Source: Bacteroidia bacterium (GTDB lineage Bacteria > Bacteroidota > Bacteroidia > B-17B0 > Aurantibacillaceae). From it: 64,000 bases of DNA. A model generated the notes under the pieces. That model saw nothing but the letters and a program-made list of their open reading frames with translations. It did no database searches and was not told where the DNA came from. Shown here piece after piece: positions 3,687 through 11,464 of the stretch. Location: positions 44,746 to 108,745 of the forward strand of contig JALOMJ010000001.1 of NCBI GenBank assembly GCA_025455485.1, given 5' to 3'. Position 1 is the stretch's first letter. Every line of letters begins with the position of its first letter. A program made the translations under genes and the position numbers.

Positions 3687-5024
3687 ATGAAGCCAAAGAA
3701 AAAAAACAGACTGATCACTTTCATTCTTCTTTCCATGATGCTGGGCATTCTGGTTGGATTTTTTGTCAACCTTTCCATCACTAACAACAGTTTTAAGTTG
3801 GCTCCCACCCAGCTTGATGGCATTACCAACCCTATAGTAAAAAAAGCGGTCACTGAGCAATTGCAGGCCTATGAAGCAGCTTGTTTTAAACAAGCCAAAA
3901 AAGAGGTGGCCTCTGATTTTTCAATCCTGAGCGATATCTTTCTTCACCTTATTAAAATGATTATTGCCCCCTTGGTGTTGGCGGTATTGGTGCTTGGCGT
4001 AGCAAAAGTGGGCGATATTAAAAGTGTGGGCAGGATAGGTTTAAAAACTCTCCTCTACTTTACCATGGCCACACTTATAGCGCTTGCCATTGGTCTTGCT
4101 TTGGTGAACCTGTTTGAACCGGGCAAGGTGATGCACCTTGAACCACCTGATGCAGGTATCAATACGGGAATACAAACAACAAAACAAACCTCTCAAAATT
4201 TTATTGACCATGTAATTCCTGAAAGTTTATTCCGATCTATGGCAGCAAACGACATTCTGCCAATTGTTGTATTCGCCATCTTTTTTGGCCTGGCAGCTGC
4301 CAGTATCGGCAATAGCGGCAAACCCATTATCGCCGCATTCGACAGTTTAAGTCAAGTGATGTTTAAGGTAACGCATTATGTGATGAACTTTGCACCCCTA
4401 GGGGTATTTGGAGCCCTTGCTTCAGTAATTATTCAGCAAGGACTAGATGTATTGAGCGGTTACCTCTATTTGATTTTTTGCTTTTTTCTGGGTTTGGTAT
4501 TTTTTATCAGCGTGGTTTTGGGTTTAATTTGTTTTTTATCCGGCATACATTTTATTCGTTTGTTAAAAGACATCCGCGAACCTATTCTTCTGGCCTTCAG
4601 TACCTCCAGCAGTGAAAGCGCCATGCCAAAAACCATTGAAGCACTTGAGCAGCATGGTATAAGCAACCGTATTGTAAGTTTTGTTTTGCCAATGGGATAC
4701 TCGTTTAATCTCGATGGAAGCATCATGTACATGACCTTTGCAACCTTATTTATCGCCCAATGTTATGGTATTGAGATTGGGCCTGGCGACCAGATTAAAA
4801 TGATGTTGGTTTTGCTCATTACCAGTAAAGGCATGGCCGGAGTACCAAGAGCATCGCTTGTGGTTATAGCCGGCATGTTAAGTATGTTTAAAATACCCGG
4901 AGAAGGTCTGTTGTTGTTGCTTGCAGTAGACCAGATTTTAGATATGGGTCGGAGCGCTACCAACGTTATTGGCAACGCTGTAGCCAGCGCCGTTGTTGCC
5001 CGTTGGGAGGGAGAAAAGTTCTGA
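3687..5024 (+). CDS. Dicarboxylate/amino acid:cation symporter (DAACS, GltP/DctA-like)
   Basis: Motifs FLHLIKMIIAPLV, AFSTSSSESAMP, GYSFNLDGS, SKGMAGVPRASLVV, DMGRSATNVIGN. Confidence 0.93.
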   Translation: MKPKKKNRLITFILLSMMLGILVGFFVNLSITNNSFKLAPTQLDGITNPIVKKAVTEQLQAYEAACFKQAKKEVASDFSILSDIFLHLIKMIIAPLVLAVLVLGVAKVGDIKSVGRIGLKTLLYFTMATLIALAIGLALVNLFEPGKVMHLEPPDAGINTGIQTTKQTSQNFIDHVIPESLFRSMAANDILPIVVFAIFFGLAAASIGNSGKPIIAAFDSLSQVMFKVTHYVMNFAPLGVFGALASVIIQQGLDVLSGYLYLIFCFFLGLVFFISVVLGLICFLSGIHFIRLLKDIREPILLAFSTSSSESAMPKTIEALEQHGISNRIVSFVLPMGYSFNLDGSIMYMTFATLFIAQCYGIEIGPGDQIKMMLVLLITSKGMAGVPRASLVVIAGMLSMFKIPGEGLLLLLAVDQILDMGRSATNVIGNAVASAVVARWEGEKF

Positions 5025-5076
5025 AAACAGATTGTGTAAATTCTTCTGACAAGAGCAATATCCCCCAAATAAATAC

Positions 5077-5084
5077 TAAATTTG
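5077..5084 (+). promoter_or_regulatory. Bacteroidota sigma-A -7 element for yidC
   Basis: TAAATTTG matches TAnnTTTG, 19 nt before the GTG start. Confidence 0.65.
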
Positions 5085-5103
5085 CGGCTCAAATTTTTAT
5101 ACC

Positions 5104-6993
5104 GTGGATAAAAAATCATTGATTGGTTTGGGACTTATTGCTGCTATACTTGGCATCTGGTTATACGCCAGCGGACCCACCCCTGAGCAAATAGCAAGAA
5201 ACAAACAAATCAGAGACTCCGTTCTGCTCGTTCAAAAAAAAGCGCAATTAGACGAAGCTGCCAAAATTGCTCTTGAACAACCCAAAGCCGATACCCTGCG
5301 TGCGGCGATTGTTCCATCCGATTCGCTTTTACAAGTTGAACTTAATAACCAATACAAAGACTTTGCACCGGCCTTAAAAGGAAAAAAAGAATACTATACC
5401 CTTGAAAACAGGCAAATAAAAGCTACCGTTTCCAATAAAGGCGGTCAAATTATCAAAGTAGAGCTCAAGGATTACAAGCGTTACGGCGGCACCCAACCTT
5501 TGGTTTTATTTGAAGAAGACTCAACACGTTTTGCCTTAAGTTTAAATGCCTACGATCGCTCAAGAATTTTCCATACCGATAGTTTTTATTTCACACCCGT
5601 TAAACAAAATGACAAGGAATTGGTGATGAGGCTTCAAACGTCAAAACCCGGTGCTCACATCGATTTTGTTTATCAATTGAAAGAAGATGGTTATATGCTT
5701 GAATCGGAAATTCGTTTCAGTGGCATGCAAAATATTATTTCTCAAACAGAGGATCAATTGCAATTAACCTGGAGCATGGTATTTCCCGGTCAGGAAAAAC
5801 ACATTGAAAAAGAAAAAGCAGCAGCTACCATCTATTTTAAGCAAGAAATCAATAGTCCTGATTACCTAAATCCCCGCAATGAAGAAGCTGAAGAAAAAGA
5901 ACTCAATGAAGCCGACATCAAATGGGTAGCATTTAAACAACAATTTTTTAACTCAAGCATCATTGCTAAGCAAGTGTTTGCTAAAGCAGGGAGTTTGGTG
6001 AAACTATCACCGCGGGCCGAATCCGGTGAACATGTAAAAGCGGTTAAGGCCGAACTGGGTGTTCCTTTCCTGCACCAGCCCAACGAAACATTTGCCATGC
6101 AATTTTATTTTGGACCAAATCACTACCCTACCCTCAAAAACTATGGTTTAGAGCTTGAAAACATAATCCCAACGGGTTGGAGCGTGTTCAGCTACATCAA
6201 TAAATGGCTGGTGATTCCTTTGTTTAATGCCAATATCCTTAACCCACTGGGCATGGGCATCATCATCCTTATTCTTACCTTAATCGTAAAGGTTATTTTA
6301 TTGCCAATTGCTTATAAAACCTACATGAGCGGGGCAAAAATGCGGGTTTTAAAGCCGGAAACTGACGCATTGAATGAGAAGTTTGGTAAAAATGCCGACC
6401 CAATGAAAAAACAGCAGGAAACCATGGCGCTTTACCGTAAAGCCGGAGTAAATCCGCTGTCTGGTTGTATACCGCTATTGTTGCAATTCCCCATACTCAT
6501 AGCCTTGTTTGCCTTTATTCCGGATTCCTTTGAATTACGTCAACAGGCATTTCTTTGGGCCGATGACTTAAGTACTTACGACAGCGTTTGGACCTTTGGC
6601 CAAATTCCTTTCATCAGCTGGGCCTATGGTGATCACGTAAGTTTGTTTGCCGGACTTATGTTTGTTAGTACCATTGTTTATACCTACATGAATAGCAGTT
6701 TAATGCCACAGCAAGGCAGTGCACAAATGCCCGGCATGAAATTTATGATGTATTTTATGCCGGTTATCTTTTTGGCCGTGATGAACAGTTATGCTGCCGG
6801 ATTAAGCTGGTACTATTTCCTGGCCAACATGTTCACTTTCTTGCAAAATTTTATCATCAAAAAGATTGTAAGTGATGATAAAATCAGAGCACAACTGGTT
6901 GCCAACATGAAAAAACCAATTAAAGTGTCAGGCTTTCAGAAACGCCTGGCCGAAATGGCCAAACAACGGGAACAAAGTCTGAAAAAGCGCTAA
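5104..6993 (+). CDS. yidC: Membrane protein insertase YidC
   Basis: N-terminus MDKKSLIGLGLI; motifs WVAFKQQFF, YFGPN, GVNPLSGCIP, LWADDLSTYD, YAAGLSWYY. GTG start. Confidence 0.95.
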   Translation: MDKKSLIGLGLIAAILGIWLYASGPTPEQIARNKQIRDSVLLVQKKAQLDEAAKIALEQPKADTLRAAIVPSDSLLQVELNNQYKDFAPALKGKKEYYTLENRQIKATVSNKGGQIIKVELKDYKRYGGTQPLVLFEEDSTRFALSLNAYDRSRIFHTDSFYFTPVKQNDKELVMRLQTSKPGAHIDFVYQLKEDGYMLESEIRFSGMQNIISQTEDQLQLTWSMVFPGQEKHIEKEKAAATIYFKQEINSPDYLNPRNEEAEEKELNEADIKWVAFKQQFFNSSIIAKQVFAKAGSLVKLSPRAESGEHVKAVKAELGVPFLHQPNETFAMQFYFGPNHYPTLKNYGLELENIIPTGWSVFSYINKWLVIPLFNANILNPLGMGIIILILTLIVKVILLPIAYKTYMSGAKMRVLKPETDALNEKFGKNADPMKKQQETMALYRKAGVNPLSGCIPLLLQFPILIALFAFIPDSFELRQQAFLWADDLSTYDSVWTFGQIPFISWAYGDHVSLFAGLMFVSTIVYTYMNSSLMPQQGSAQMPGMKFMMYFMPVIFLAVMNSYAAGLSWYYFLANMFTFLQNFIIKKIVSDDKIRAQLVANMKKPIKVSGFQKRLAEMAKQREQSLKKR

Positions 6994-7077
6994 AAAGCAA
7001 TTTTTAGTATTTTTTCACAAGCATTGAAATGTTAAATTCTTTGGGTTCTGTTGTGTTTGAATTACCTTAGTGGCGTT

Positions 7078-7416
7078 TTGAGGAAAAACAAATCCATAAA
7101 ATTACTGAGCAGTACGCTCCTTATTCTGCTTACGGCATGGATTGCATTACCTAAAGTGTATGTGCATGAGTTGTTTCATCACAACCATGAATTGGTAAAA
7201 AGTACCGATAAGACCAGCATTCAATCGGAACAATCAACCGAAGATTGTGAATTTGAAAAGTACAACAAGCCGGTTTATTTCCATATTTTTACCTTTATCA
7301 GCAAACTGGTTCCCGTTAAACCCGTTAATTCTCTCGAAATTTCCGAAAAAAATCTACGCCTGCCCGGCGTTTCCTTGCTCATCTCCCTTCTACGGGCACC
7401 TCCTGTAACTGAGTAA
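7078..7416 (+). CDS. Small membrane-anchored His-rich leader protein ending in RAPP (DUF2946/CruR-like putative arrest peptide)
   Basis: Basic N-terminus, hydrophobic segment, HELFHHNH, DCEF and C-terminal LLRAPPVTE. Ends 53 nt upstream of a TonB-dependent receptor. Start uncertain (TTG 7051 or TTG 7078). Confidence 0.7.
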   Translation: MRKNKSIKLLSSTLLILLTAWIALPKVYVHELFHHNHELVKSTDKTSIQSEQSTEDCEFEKYNKPVYFHIFTFISKLVPVKPVNSLEISEKNLRLPGVSLLISLLRAPPVTE

Positions 7417-7427
7417 ACACTCGGTTA
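7406..7427 (+). promoter_or_regulatory. Hairpin overlapping the leader-ORF stop codon (putative attenuator element)
   Basis: TAACTGAGT-AAAC-ACTCGGTTA forms a 9-bp stem with one G-U pair, just 3' of the RAPP codons (7393-7404). Confidence 0.45.
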
Positions 7428-7469
7428 GTCAATTTAATTCCCTTCATTTTATCTCATTGAACATTTGCC

Positions 7470-9797
7470 ATGTTTAAAAAACTAGCACTTGTATATATTC
7501 TAATTCATGCGTTTTATCTTTTCAACGCACAGAATTGTAATCTCCGCTTAGAGGGGATTGTTCGTGATGAAGATAATTCAGAAAGTTTGGCGTTTTCAAT
7601 CGTTAAACTGCTTTCGCCCGAGAAAATTCTTCAATGCAACCAGCACGGTCACTTTACAATAGAAAATTTATGTGCGGGTAATTACAAATTGCTTGTTCAA
7701 CACCTTGGCTGCAGAGATACGGTGTTTGAATTTGTCCTAAAAAAATCTCGACAAATGGTATTTAAACTTCCCCACAGTCAAAATGAACTTCAATCTATTG
7801 ACATCATCACCAAACACGAGGAACTGAAGTTCACGCAAAGCGCACAAGAACTTGATACCAAAATGATGGATAAAAGCAGGGGTTTAAGTTTGGGCGATCA
7901 GCTAAAACAGCTCAATGGCGTTAGTACTTTTAACACAGGACCTTCTATTTCAAAGCCAATGATTAATGGTATGCAAGGCTACCGCATCCTCATTCTGAAT
8001 AATGGCATTCGTCTTGAAGGGCAGCAATGGGGAAGCGACCATGCCCCGGAAATCGACCCCTTTATCGCAAACAAAATCAGTCTCATCAGAGGCGCTTCCT
8101 CTGTGCGTTATGGCAGTGATGCCATTGGTGGCATTGTTTTAATAGATTCCGGGGAATTGCCGGATACCGCCTCTGTTACAGGAGAATTTAATTTAAGCGG
8201 ATTCAGCAATGGAAAAGGCGGAGCGGGTTCCCTGCAATTACAAGGCTACTTTGACAACGTAAAAAACCTGAGCTGGAGAGTTCAGGGCAGCATGAAAAAA
8301 ACGGGTAATTTAAAAACACCCGAGTATTATTTAAAAAATACCGGCCTTGAGGAATTTAATTTTTCTTACGCCCTCGAATACCATATCCGACAAGTGGGGT
8401 TTAAAGTGTTTTACTCTCAGTTCAACTCTCGTATTGGTATTTTCAGCAATGCACACGTTGGTAATCTTACCGATTTGCAAGCTGCATTTAACCGAAACAA
8501 ACCATTGGACAGCCTTGCCGGATTTTCTTATTCCATCGACAGGCCTTATCAGAATATAGAGCACGAAATGTTGAAGATAAGCAGCGACATTCATACCGGG
8601 CAGCGTTCAAGGGTATTTCTGAATTATGCCTTGCAATACAACATTCGTGAAGAATATGATAAACATCGTCCTAAAAACGACTCCATTGCTGCCCTTAATT
8701 TACCTGAGGCAGAATACAGGTTAAACACCAATGCAGCAGAGTTAATTTGGGAACACGATTACATCAGAGGACTTAGAGGAAAATTTGGCGTTCAGGCGCA
8801 GGTTCAGGAAAATCGGTATTTTCAACGCTTTTTTATTCCCAATTATAACGCATACACCTGGGGCATTTTTGGTATTGAACGCTGGATGTTATCTCATTTC
8901 GAATTTGAAGCCGGGGCCCGTTACGATTATAAACACCTGCAATCCTTTTTTTACGAAGGCAATCAACTCCTTGAACCCATCCGCACTTTTGATTATGGCA
9001 GTTTTAACTTAGGCGGTATTTACAAACCTCATTCCGGCATACGTATCAATCTGAACATTTCAAGCGGATGGAGGGCTCCTTCTGTAAATGAATTATACAG
9101 CAATGGCTTGCACCACGGTGTTGGGGCCATTGAACGTGGTAATAAAAATCTACTCACCGAAAAAAGTCTCAGCGCCATCAGCACAATTCAATATTCACGC
9201 AAAAAAATTGATGTGGAACTGAGTGCCTACACCTACACCTTTAAAAACTTCATATACTATCAACCAACAGGAAAGCCGGAACTCACCATTCGTGGTGCAT
9301 TTCCGGTTTTTAATTATTTACAAAACAACGCCAACATTAGTGGAGGGGACGCCACCATGCTCTATAACGTAACCCATTGGCTTCAATTAAAGTTAACGGG
9401 CATGGTGGTTCGCGGCAGAAATACTGATTTGAAACAAGACCTGCTTTATATGCCTGCCGACCGATTACAGTTTTTTGTTCAATTCAAACCAAAGGACAGA
9501 AAAACGGTGAAAGACATTTATCTGGAGCCCAATCTGCTTTATGTGGCGAAACAAACCAGGGTGCAACCAAACGTAGATTATGCCGAGCCACCTGAAGCCT
9601 ACTTACTTTTCGGATTAAATGCTGGAAGCACCTTTGTTTGGCACAAACAGGTTTTGATTGTGAATTTTGCTATTGTTAATGCCGCCAACACCATTTACAG
9701 AGATTACCTCGACCGTTTCAGGTATTACAACGATGCTCTTGGGGTGAATTACACGCTTCGCATACGAATACCATTCACACTATATGATAAAAAATAA
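7470..9797 (+). CDS. TonB-dependent receptor, probably for metal uptake (ZnuD-like), with N-terminal carboxypeptidase-regulatory-like domain
   Basis: Plug motifs SKPMING..GYRILILNNG, QQWGSDHAPEIDP and RGASSVRYGSDAIGG; RAPSVNELYSNGLHHG; YRDYLDRFRY near the C-terminus. Confidence 0.88.
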   Translation: MFKKLALVYILIHAFYLFNAQNCNLRLEGIVRDEDNSESLAFSIVKLLSPEKILQCNQHGHFTIENLCAGNYKLLVQHLGCRDTVFEFVLKKSRQMVFKLPHSQNELQSIDIITKHEELKFTQSAQELDTKMMDKSRGLSLGDQLKQLNGVSTFNTGPSISKPMINGMQGYRILILNNGIRLEGQQWGSDHAPEIDPFIANKISLIRGASSVRYGSDAIGGIVLIDSGELPDTASVTGEFNLSGFSNGKGGAGSLQLQGYFDNVKNLSWRVQGSMKKTGNLKTPEYYLKNTGLEEFNFSYALEYHIRQVGFKVFYSQFNSRIGIFSNAHVGNLTDLQAAFNRNKPLDSLAGFSYSIDRPYQNIEHEMLKISSDIHTGQRSRVFLNYALQYNIREEYDKHRPKNDSIAALNLPEAEYRLNTNAAELIWEHDYIRGLRGKFGVQAQVQENRYFQRFFIPNYNAYTWGIFGIERWMLSHFEFEAGARYDYKHLQSFFYEGNQLLEPIRTFDYGSFNLGGIYKPHSGIRINLNISSGWRAPSVNELYSNGLHHGVGAIERGNKNLLTEKSLSAISTIQYSRKKIDVELSAYTYTFKNFIYYQPTGKPELTIRGAFPVFNYLQNNANISGGDATMLYNVTHWLQLKLTGMVVRGRNTDLKQDLLYMPADRLQFFVQFKPKDRKTVKDIYLEPNLLYVAKQTRVQPNVDYAEPPEAYLLFGLNAGSTFVWHKQVLIVNFAIVNAANTIYRDYLDRFRYYNDALGVNYTLRIRIPFTLYDKK

Positions 9798-9815
9798 ACC
9801 TAAAAACAAAAAACC

Positions 9816-10463
9816 ATGAAAAAAACAATTAAACAACTCGCCTTTGTGGCTCTAACCTCAGGTTTACTTGCGGTGTCTTGCAAAAAAGATGAAAAAACCA
9901 ACCCGCCTTCACCGGCACCACCTCCACCGGCCAATGAGGAAGAATTAATTACCACATTTAAATTGTACCTAAGCGACGGTAATGACACAACTGTTTATAT
10001 GTTCAAAGACCCGGATGGGGAAGGCGGTATTCCGGCATTCTACGGACCGGGTACAACAACGGCCTCCACGCAAAGTGATTCGGTAATTGTGTTAAAACCC
10101 AACACGTCGTATACTGCAACACTGTTGTTTTTAGACGAAAGCAAAACTGTTACTGACACCATTTCGCATGAAATTGAAGAAGAAGCCGATGAACACATGG
10201 TGTTTTTTAATCAAAGTAATCCTTCGGCTCTCCCAAATGCATCTGTAACCATTTCAGGAACGAACCTTGGTATAACGTATTTAGACAATGACGGGTCTAC
10301 TCCTCCACTGCCACTTGGTTTGATTTCACAATGGCAAACAGGAAATGTAACAGGAAAAGCGCCGCTTACCATTGCTTTAAAACATCAGCCCGGATCAAAA
10401 AACGGAACCTATGCTCCGGGAGACACCGACATTTCAGTACTATTTAAGGTATTGATTAACTAA
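9816..10463 (+). CDS. Lipoprotein of the EEELITT family associated with metal TonB receptors
   Basis: Lipobox LAVSC followed by KKDE, Pro-rich linker, and motifs NEEELITT, DPDGEGG, EIEEEADEH, LKHQP, GDTD. Confidence 0.75.
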   Translation: MKKTIKQLAFVALTSGLLAVSCKKDEKTNPPSPAPPPPANEEELITTFKLYLSDGNDTTVYMFKDPDGEGGIPAFYGPGTTTASTQSDSVIVLKPNTSYTATLLFLDESKTVTDTISHEIEEEADEHMVFFNQSNPSALPNASVTISGTNLGITYLDNDGSTPPLPLGLISQWQTGNVTGKAPLTIALKHQPGSKNGTYAPGDTDISVLFKVLIN

Positions 10464-10504: not shown

Positions 10505-11464
10505 TTATCTGTTTTTTATAATCATCCAGTTTTCAAGATCAGATTGACTAAGTTCATAATAATCCACTTTTTTTATCACAATAGAATTATCGAGATAATA
10601 GATGCGTGGCAATTGCGCAGAAGCCAGATGTACAAAGGTTTTGCCGAGACAAAAACTGTAGGGAATGTTCTCGGCTTTTGTGTCTTTAAGAAATTCCGAA
10701 AGTTTCTCTTTGCCTCCGTTAAGCACAAAATAAATGGAAAGCTCTGGATTACTGCGTTTAATTAGCCGGAATTTTTTTGCAGCAATGCGGCAATGCGGAC
10801 AAGACAGACTTAAAAACGCCAGCACGTGCTTTCCCTCTCTTAATTCAATTTTTGGAACTTCTACTTTTGAAGTGTCTTCAGGATGATAAAGCAGATTTAA
10901 TTCAAGAGGGTAATTAATTTTCTCTTGTAGATTATTAGAAGAATAGGTGTAATCGATAGGATTCACCACAAACGGCAATGCCACACAAGATAATCCTGAA
11001 AGTGACAAGAGCAATGCATTGTATTTAATTTGCCATCCAGCATAAAACTTATATACATAGGCTATGAGAACAAGCATCACCAGATTTTTTATGATAGCCT
11101 GCAAGGGTGACATTTTTATGTGTTCGCCAAAACAACCGCAATTCCCCTCGTTCCCACTTACAGCAATTTGAACAGAAAGATAAATTATAAAAAATAACAG
11201 AACCCCTGCAGCAAGGGGCAAACTAAAGGCTTTCAATTTATAATTGCTGATGAGAAGGCCCCCAATAAAAAATTCAAGTCCTATCATTAGCCGGGCCTCA
11301 ATGGGTGCCGTGTACCAATTACCAATACCAATTTCTACAAAACTAAACTCAAATGTTTCAATTACCGGATACAATTTGGTATAGGCGGAATATAAAAACA
11401 CCAAACCAAGTAGGATGGAAAAAAGTATAGCTGTTAATTTTAGAAAGGTTTTCAAAGAACTCAA
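10505..11464 (-). CDS. MauE/DoxX-family membrane protein (BT_3928-like) fused to a thioredoxin-like domain
   Basis: N-terminal TM helices with NCGCFG; C-terminal soluble domain with SLSCPHC. Confidence 0.78.
   Translation of the reverse strand: MSSLKTFLKLTAILFSILLGLVFLYSAYTKLYPVIETFEFSFVEIGIGNWYTAPIEARLMIGLEFFIGGLLISNYKLKAFSLPLAAGVLLFFIIYLSVQIAVSGNEGNCGCFGEHIKMSPLQAIIKNLVMLVLIAYVYKFYAGWQIKYNALLLSLSGLSCVALPFVVNPIDYTYSSNNLQEKINYPLELNLLYHPEDTSKVEVPKIELREGKHVLAFLSLSCPHCRIAAKKFRLIKRSNPELSIYFVLNGGKEKLSEFLKDTKAENIPYSFCLGKTFVHLASAQLPRIYYLDNSIVIKKVDYYELSQSDLENWMIIKNR

Follow-up and report, generated by a model that had tools for sequence, protein, structure and literature searches.

A candidate metal-sensing arrest leader ahead of a TonB receptor operon in Bacteroidia

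A stretch of 64,000 nucleotides from the genome of a Bacteroidia bacterium (contig JALOMJ010000001.1; hereafter the window) carries a small open reading frame (ORF) that ends shortly before the genes for a TonB-dependent receptor and a lipoprotein. The locus raises the question of what a gene of only 112 codons does in front of an importer, given that its product bears a hydrophobic segment, a cluster of His residues, a lone Cys and, close to its end, the tetrapeptide RAPP. RAPP and RGPP are a proven arrest motif; it is depleted in the proteomes of Bacteroidota and enriched ahead of TonB receptors (PMC12992588). The sequence comparisons described below make it probable that the ORF is a cis-acting, metal-sensing arrest leader of a leader–receptor–lipoprotein operon, in which ribosome stalling would prevent transcription termination.

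The leader ORF

The leader occupies positions 7078 to 7416 on the forward strand of the window, with a TTG start codon at 7078 and a TAA stop codon at 7414 to 7416, and Met is absent throughout its 112-amino-acid product. The start was assigned to 7078, and the upstream TTG at 7051 disfavoured, because homologues that begin with ATG share an N-terminus of the form M-[KR]-K-x-K. This Lys- and Arg-rich N-terminus precedes a hydrophobic stretch, L9 to L24 (7102 to 7149, on the forward strand like every feature below unless stated), that is predicted to be a membrane anchor or signal segment. An AlphaFold2 model contains a helix at residues 3–23 (predicted local distance difference test score, pLDDT, 84–95) as its only confident part; past the anchor it exhibits no fold and no visible ligand cluster. 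The anchor is probably uncleaved, given that a small residue is absent at position −3 of a plausible cleavage site.

Three motifs follow the anchor. A His block, H30-x4-H35-x-H37 plus H34 (HELFHHNH, 7165 to 7188), was recognized in the sequence and by searching the family for the pattern HxxxxHxH. The sole Cys lies within D56-C57-E58-F59-E60 (7243 to 7257), a candidate ligand motif of the form D-C-x-x-[ED]. Finally, the presumed arrest site R106-A-P-P109 (codons CGG GCA CCT CCT, 7393 to 7404) is followed by the tail VTE and the stop codon. An initial annotation of this DNA had described an ORF of roughly 112 amino acids with a transmembrane or signal segment, HELFHHNH, a lone Cys in DCEF and RAPP at 7393 to 7404, all of which we confirm from the sequence. 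It had also placed LRAPP at the C-terminus; the motif is present at 7393 to 7404 but is not terminal, because three residues separate it from the stop codon.

These motifs are beyond chance, as RAPP is rare in the genome and the motifs are conserved in about 60 homologues. Among the ATG-initiated ORFs of the 3.05-Mb genome (1.1 million residues), RAPP occurs twice and RGPP not at all, and neither RAPP is near a C-terminus. The genome carries a single copy of the leader.

A family of R[AG]PP leaders linked to TonB receptors

A word-indexed search recovered 19 close homologues (48–94% identity), HMMER, run exhaustively against 1.84 billion cluster representatives, recovered 47 clusters (24–62% identity), and scans of species-representative genomes added 16 leader loci. 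The family thus assembled has about 60 members, down to 24% identity, all apparently from Bacteroidia, where its distribution is patchy (15 of 301 sampled genomes). Pfam and NCBIfam scans of the leader and 37 family members matched no model, even at E ≤ 10. The leader is a member of a real but unnamed Bacteroidia protein family that has so far gone unannotated.

Members share a fixed order of elements: the anchor; P-K-x-Y-x-H-x-L-x-x-H-x-H; a variable stretch of about 17 residues; D-C-x-F-x-K-[YF]-x-x-P-V-Y-F; a second variable stretch, of about 40 residues; L-R-[AG]-P-P; and two or three residues before the stop codon. The R[AG]PP motif is carried by 48 homologues (33 RAPP and 15 RGPP), and its distance from the stop codon is two or three residues in 45 of them. 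The pattern HxxxxHxH is found in 40 of the 41 full-length R[AG]PP members. As the initial annotation had proposed examining in orthologous leaders, both R[AG]PP and the His residues are kept down to the lowest identity in the family. In 41 of 48 members a D precedes the Cys; three positions past the Cys, 41 members have E or D and five have N or Q. All six Arg, all eight Ala and Gly, and all four Pro codons occur at R[AG]PP among the 36 leader ORFs of the loci. Thus, synonymous codon use at the motif is free, and selection acts on the peptide rather than on the RNA.

Of 47 members, 42 place the Cys 49 residues ahead of the Arg of R[AG]PP and the others place it 48–50 residues ahead, even though the stretch between the two is the least conserved part of the leader, with residues 83–100 hypervariable in sequence and fixed in length. 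The distance from the His block to the Cys is less fixed (25–30 residues). The family profile also reached other subfamilies of Bacteroidia leaders, in which a Cys likewise lies 46–49 residues ahead of R[AG]PP.

Every motif-bearing leader for which downstream DNA is available precedes a co-oriented TonB receptor (29 of 29: the window, L001–L013, L016 and L025–L038), an outcome in favour of the initial annotation, which had suggested collecting small ORFs upstream of homologous receptors. The gap between the two genes is 44–160 nucleotides, with the exception of L013, where a second, paralogous RAPP leader intervenes. In the window, the 53-nucleotide gap reported earlier between the leader stop codon and the receptor ATG (7470) is correct. 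The spacers measure 44–57 nucleotides in eight of the 17 core loci, the window included, and therefore leave little room for a separate receptor promoter. The gene yidC is the upstream neighbour of the leader in 13 of 17 loci (L001–L017), and the leader–receptor link persists without it in L008, L010 and L016. Furthermore, the leader precedes a receptor of another subtype (23–26% identity) in L004, L009, L013, L027–L030 and L035–L038.

Joint loss of motifs and receptor

Homologues lacking RAPP occur in nine contexts (L015, L017, L039, L040/L041, L043, L044 and the contigs of P0030 and P0063), and an intact co-oriented receptor is found downstream in none of them. Short forms of about 80 amino acids (L017, L039, L040/L041 and P0030) are followed by a convergent gene or an inverted receptor operon, as are the full-length forms P0034 (L043), P0057 (L044) and P0063. 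In L015, where the motif reads RTLP, only a receptor remnant remains downstream. The homologues without RAPP also lack HxxxxHxH and the Cys, except for the evidently recent cases L015, L014 and P0009.

A maximum-likelihood tree of the N-terminal 85 residues places six changes to or from the state without RAPP, five of them forced by well-supported branches; the ligand columns were kept in the alignment, which if anything lowers the count. Read from this tree, RAPP is estimated to have been lost independently at least five to six times. The joint loss of RAPP, candidate ligands and receptor is our strongest evidence that the three constitute one functional unit.

The short homologues (66–91 amino acids) stop immediately after an I-P-x-K-P block and carry no His, Cys or RAPP motif. 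They include L017:4001–4237, L040:1365–1619 and L039:118–366 (all on the plus strand of their loci) as well as P0030, P0036, P0042, P0045, P0051, P0052, P0054, P0055 and P0060. Their anchor and a K-Y-N-K-P-V-Y-F-N-I-F-K-F-I segment are well conserved, and in L017, L040 and L041 they directly follow yidC. The existence of these forms suggests that the N-terminal two-thirds of the leader has a function of its own.

Comparison with CruR

CruR (Bp2923) of Bordetella pertussis, a member of Pfam family DUF2946 (PF11162), is the leader of cruR-bfrG-bp2921 (Roy et al. 2022, PMC9426467) and has been proposed to sense cytoplasmic copper (PMC9426467). Its arrest has been demonstrated in vitro, and the toeprint supplies the assignment of residues to the ribosomal P and A sites (PMC12992588). 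Residues C90 and C93 of CruR precede R139 by 49 and 46 residues, respectively; lengthening this spacing impaired copper control, and the distance from the Cys motif to RAPP is conserved in more than 2000 DUF2946 proteins (PMC9426467).

The window's leader resembles CruR in being a small exported or anchored protein encoded directly upstream of a TonB-dependent transporter, in being predicted to be largely unstructured, and in carrying RAPP three residues ahead of the stop codon. Its Cys lies 49 residues ahead of the Arg, with a Glu at 46, where CruR has its second Cys, and both loci exhibit a tract with more C than G towards the 3′ end of the leader and in the spacer. In contrast, the window's leader has a single Cys with E or D at +3 plus HxxxxHxH, whereas CruR has CxxC. 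The window also has a 53-nucleotide spacer and a stop-spanning hairpin where the CruR operon has a 162-nucleotide spacer and a Rho terminator, its third gene encodes a β-sandwich lipoprotein rather than a PepSY_TM protein, and its host is an AT-rich member of the Bacteroidia. The metal sensed would probably not be Cu(I), unlike that of CruR.

The initial annotation considered the ORF a Bacteroidota analogue of CruR, with a His cluster replacing CxxC, and proposed a hidden Markov model comparison with DUF2946. That comparison supports an analogue rather than a family member: CxxC is absent, the leader does not match PF11162 (gathering score 23.7 bits) at E ≤ 1, 37 family members do not match at E ≤ 10, and a whole-genome PF11162 scan did not match the leader locus. 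DUF2946 is in any case rare among Bacteroidota, being detected in five of 201 sampled genomes, two of them above the cut-off. The notion of replacement is only partly borne out. The His block is present and conserved, but it forms an extra upstream block, and it is the lone Cys that, at 49 residues from the Arg, corresponds in position to CruR's first Cys, with E or D (41 of 48) in place of the second. An hhalign comparison with four Bacteroidota DUF2946-like proteins aligned only RAPP, at a probability of 1%, and was rejected as a sign of homology; the reference alignment was small, and a remote relationship is possible.

RNA features around the stall site

A 9-base-pair hairpin spans the leader stop codon at 7406 to 7427, beginning two nucleotides past the Pro codons. 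Its 5′ arm runs from the last codons into the first base of the stop codon (7406 to 7414), its loop lies at 7415 to 7418 and its 3′ arm at 7419 to 7427. The predicted folding energy is −9.6 kcal/mol (z −4.6), and none of 200 shuffled sequences folds as well. Corresponding hairpins in relatives begin −4 to +5 nucleotides from the Pro codons and have z ≤ −1.7 in ten of 14 cases, and in 12 of 17 a U-rich tail (at least five U in eight nucleotides) gives them a terminator-like appearance. The arm sequences differ among loci, with pairing retained. On standard toeprint distances, a ribosome holding Pro108 in its P site (7399 to 7401) should shield the RNA to about 7411–7415, thereby covering the 5′ arm.

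A C-rich, G-poor tract (7260 to 7440; 26–35% C versus 9–18% G in 78-nucleotide windows) also extends from the variable 3′ half of the leader into the spacer. The same skew is found in the 3′ half of the leader in all 14 loci compared (+0.10 to +0.46); the 5′ half is near zero, and the skew is negative at the start of the receptor gene in 13 of 14. The Rho-loading site of the CruR operon was located by its authors through such a C>G signature (PMC9426467).

A weak, AU-rich hairpin at 7457 to 7477 pairs the receptor AUG with the upstream sequence UUGAACAU, and L001–L003 have a 9-base-pair version of it. This candidate regulatory element was rejected, as the hairpin is not significant against shuffles (z −0.8) and is found only in the window and its three closest relatives.

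Proposed mechanism

Combining these features with the CruR precedent, we propose the following model. The N-terminal hydrophobic segment would anchor the nascent chain in the inner membrane or export it through that membrane. When the ribosome reaches R106-A-P-P109, peptide-bond formation would stall with Pro108 in the P site and Pro109 in the A site, by analogy with the CruR toeprint. The putative ligand block, H30, H35 and H37 together with C57 and E60, would then be 48–78 residues away from the peptidyl-transferase centre and so have emerged from the exit tunnel. Occupancy of this block by a metal ion would set the duration of the stall by altering the force on the chain or its conformation.

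If this model is correct, the stalled ribosome covers the 5′ arm of the hairpin and ribosomes queued behind it cover the C-rich tract upstream; termination, whether intrinsic, Rho-dependent or both, would therefore be blocked, and the receptor and lipoprotein genes would be transcribed. Relief of the stall would let the ribosome depart, whereupon the terminator or Rho would act and the importer would be turned off. We regard it as the likelier polarity that bound metal relieves the stall and so turns the importer off, because this follows the logic of an importer and the analogy with CruR. The conserved anchor suggests that sensing would occur at the periplasmic face, as in CutF, a second DUF2946 leader discussed below.

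As a tentative first guess for the sensed metal we name zinc, because the candidate ligands are a His, Cys and carboxylate set without CxxC and because the closest solved relative of the receptor is ZnuD (4rdr, E 7.8e-20; the next solved chain, ShuA, is at about 1e-9). Among NCBIfam models, the best matches of the receptor are the TonB-dependent hemin model and ZnuD, both far under cut-off: TIGR01785 (TonB-dependent heme/hemoglobin) scores 157.3 bits (E 5.4e-46; cut-off 316.85) and NF038289 (ZnuD) scores 120.7 bits (cut-off 950). By these profile scores the receptor is related to the heme-receptor group and is not a member of it by curated threshold.

In its most specific form, the proposal would be an arrest peptide for a metal other than copper, probably zinc, that joins a three-His, Cys and carboxylate set to CruR's 46–49-residue ligand-to-RAPP ruler without detectable homology, and couples its stall to an intrinsic terminator. 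We hold this full combination to be possible but, taken as a whole, doubtful. Should it be true, the 46–49-residue ruler would reflect a physical rule of design that holds for metal-gated arrest peptides in general, and the locus would represent a one-hairpin attenuator in which the 5′ arm of the terminator is built from the last codons of the leader.

Several observations weigh against a metal-sensing leader coupled to termination. The tail of the window's hairpin is weak, with four U in eight nucleotides and not a canonical U-tract, and a terminator scan of 6900 to 7600 did not flag it. Stop-spanning hairpins are common, being found at 14 of 40 long control ORFs in the window versus 13 of 17 leaders, such that they are enriched in leaders but not exclusive to them. 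RNAalifold found no consensus structure in an ungapped alignment of the region after RAPP, in which the 3′ arms are out of register, and yielded no covariation statistic. The C>G skew could be a mere consequence of amino-acid composition. A ribosome that terminates normally at the stop codon also covers the hairpin, so the kinetics of attenuation are not self-evident. As for the metal, the receptor is as close to heme receptors by NCBIfam, where it scores even better than against ZnuD, and a Pfam scan of the neighbours of leader–receptor units away from yidC revealed no metal-related genes. The orthologous receptor in L017 is headed by a different, Cys-richer type of leader. Finally, the short homologues without RAPP keep the anchor and Y-N-K-P-V-Y-F-x-I-F-K-F under apparent selection, and thus the N-terminal 80 residues may also act as a protein.

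Alternative explanations

The last of these points leads to an explanation in which the product of the ORF is a small, stable membrane protein partnering the receptor system, for example a metal-binding or chaperone subunit at the periplasmic face, with RAPP being a C-terminal structure or a pause without regulatory output and the hairpin an ordinary terminator or stabilizer. Part of the protein does appear to be selected for itself, as the short forms after yidC retain the anchor and the Y-N-K-P-V-Y-F block where RAPP, His, Cys and the receptor are absent. Furthermore, a His, Cys and Glu set could also bind metal in a mature protein, and hairpins at stop codons are common. A stable protein would not readily account for residues 83–100, which are hypervariable but fixed in length, or for the lack of any AlphaFold2 fold past the anchor. 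Proteomes strongly avoid the stalling sequence RAPP, and yet in the leader it is invariant two or three residues from the stop codon and is lost whenever the receptor is lost; the spacers of 44–160 nucleotides likewise leave little room for a receptor promoter of its own. We therefore judge this explanation to be quite unlikely. An arrest leader that monitors membrane insertion or secretion through Sec or YidC activity rather than metal, like SecM, MifM or ApdA/ApdP, seems very unlikely. Its appeal lies in the N-terminal anchor, in the well-documented RAPP leaders of Sec and YidC genes and in the prevalence of yidC as upstream neighbour (13 of 17 loci), an adjacency that would reflect such a role. 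However, a leader downstream of yidC cannot control it in cis, the leader–receptor–lipoprotein unit exists away from yidC in L008, L010 and L016, and the genes downstream encode an importer rather than localization machinery. A pure secretion monitor also has no need of His and Cys ligands, which here are kept and lost together with RAPP.

A metal-sensing arrest leader might also work with the other polarity or another output, such that metal induces the stall or the stall acts on translation initiation of the receptor or on mRNA stability. CutF, which stalls with copper and thereby melts a stem-loop over the ribosome-binding site of the next gene, provides a precedent, and two features of the window would suit this variant: the receptor AUG lies within a weak local hairpin there and in the three closest relatives, and the post-stop hairpin has no strong U-tract. 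Set against this, the start-codon hairpin is not significant and lies more than 50 nucleotides from the stall site, out of reach of the stalled ribosome; hairpins of 12 of 17 relatives are terminator-like, all loci have the C>G tract, and an importer that is on when its metal is present would be physiologically odd. We consider this variant rather unlikely, and favour a leader whose stall prevents termination until metal relieves it.

Relation to other arrest systems

The leader most likely switches the importer by R[AG]PP stalling, a principle already published for CruR and CutF. CutF of Rhodobacter capsulatus is a DUF2946 member in which copper induces a stall that unmasks the cutO ribosome-binding site (10.1101/2025.02.05.636593, 10.1101/2022.11.11.516240). 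In CutF, as is predicted for the window's leader, an exported nascent chain carries a metal motif ahead of a C-terminal stall site at prolines, with an RNA hairpin beside that site. Unlike the window's leader, CutF has CxxxC and a PPP motif and controls a detoxifying oxidase rather than preceding an importer; its polarity is opposite to that proposed here, as copper brings about its stall.

A survey published in EMBO J in 2025 described small RAPP/RGPP ORFs by the thousand ahead of TonB receptors, occurring ‘universally’ among Gram-negative bacteria (PMC12992588). The window's leader fits the TonB-related class of that survey, being a small protein that has a localization signal and carries R[AG]PP close to its C-terminus, with a TonB receptor encoded by the following gene, although the class is set by motif and context and not by homology or ligand set. 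Its source data list Bacteroidota examples as hypothetical proteins, and the signature strings of the window's family were not found in the searched parts of the supplement (PMC12992588). With ApdA, ApdP and SecM the leader shares the arrest tetrapeptide at the peptidyl-transferase centre (RAPP or RAGP) and an N-terminal localization signal (PMC10951233, PMC7897499). Those proteins monitor secretion from upstream of sec genes, whereas the window's leader precedes an importer and bears candidate metal ligands. Indeed, SecM, MifM, ApdA/ApdP and CliM all stand directly upstream of the sec or yidC gene that they regulate, and in the window yidC is upstream of the leader. A literature search for a zinc-sensing arrest peptide turned up none.

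Metal-gated arrest has so far been tested in two proteobacterial proteins, both DUF2946 copper sensors. The family is of interest for a 49-residue ruler shared without detectable homology, a different ligand chemistry and a natural loss series, in which the joint decay of RAPP, His and Cys with receptor loss serves as a set of evolutionary loss-of-function controls. Through this family, a group of small genes that now lack annotation can also be given a functional label. It raises the questions of whether a spacing of about 49 residues is a general mechanical need for reporting ligand binding to the peptidyl-transferase centre, whether metals besides copper are sensed by nascent-chain arrest, and whether a simple terminator hairpin can serve as the stall read-out in Bacteroidota, a phylum that departs from the model organisms in translation initiation and gene regulation.

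Downstream genes and neighbourhood

The receptor gene (7470 to 9797) encodes a 775-amino-acid TonB-dependent receptor with matches to the Pfam domains CarbopepD_reg_2, Plug and TonB_dep_Rec_b-barrel and a signal peptide that ends in FNA, with QN following. The His-containing motifs DHAPE and GLHHG singled out in the initial annotation are present and conserved in the receptor group but say nothing specific about the substrate. GLHHG sits between WRAP and NKNL boxes, which we take to resemble the FRAP and NPNL boxes of heme-type receptors.

The lipoprotein gene (9816 to 10463) encodes 215 amino acids with the lipobox AVSC and is co-conserved with the receptor, which it follows in nine loci and, in L017, also in inverted orientation. 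Its invariant residues are an E, a D and two His (H127 and H190). AlphaFold2 predicts an immunoglobulin (Ig)-like β-sandwich (pLDDT 73); the matches from Foldseek and VIA-align were all generic Ig-like sandwiches (best Z 7.1) without a functional clue, and a Pfam search that included HmuY gave no match at E ≤ 1.

Upstream, the leader adjoins yidC (5104 to 6993). Beyond the lipoprotein gene, the opposite strand carries a gene at 10505 to 11464 for a MauE/DoxX membrane domain fused to a thioredoxin-like domain with CPHC, which has a weak match to the BT_3928 family, and then dnaK. The MauE/DoxX–thioredoxin gene is convergent with the lipoprotein gene, and its presence nearby is conserved in L001–L004, L015 and L040.

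In L004, L009 and L013 the leader is still beside yidC, and the receptor ORFs (4428–6842, 4479–6935 and 4727–7180, respectively; 804–818 amino acids) are of the other subtype, with no lipoprotein gene. In these loci the leader seems to have stayed in place while the receptor behind it was exchanged. In L013, tandem RAPP/RGPP leaders (3923–4264 and 4336–4668, both on the plus strand) stand ahead of one 817-amino-acid receptor; the first belongs to the window's family, and the second, of a paralogous type, is richer in His and has two Cys (H-T-H-C-E-V-F ... A-R-A-P-P). In L017, from a metagenome-assembled genome labelled Chitinophagaceae, a receptor–lipoprotein pair orthologous to that of the window (56–57% identity) is inverted and headed by an H-T-H-C leader, and a second leader-like ORF, with CxxC and RGPP, comes behind the lipoprotein gene and is not followed by a receptor. 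These two ORFs lie on the minus strand of the locus, at 7787–8119 and 4355–4687.

Upstream of the leader, an alignment of nine yidC–leader spacers revealed a conserved, T-rich block at 7030 to 7072 (TGTTAAATTCTTTG ... TTACCTTAGTG), which we take to resemble the −33/−7 promoter elements of Bacteroidota and thus to be a putative promoter. A scan of 6900 to 7600 for σ70 promoters and terminators, not designed for Bacteroidota promoters, gave nothing useful on the forward strand, and an Rfam scan of the same interval yielded no matches, riboswitches included. Transcription from the putative promoter would give the leader mRNA a very short 5′ untranslated region.

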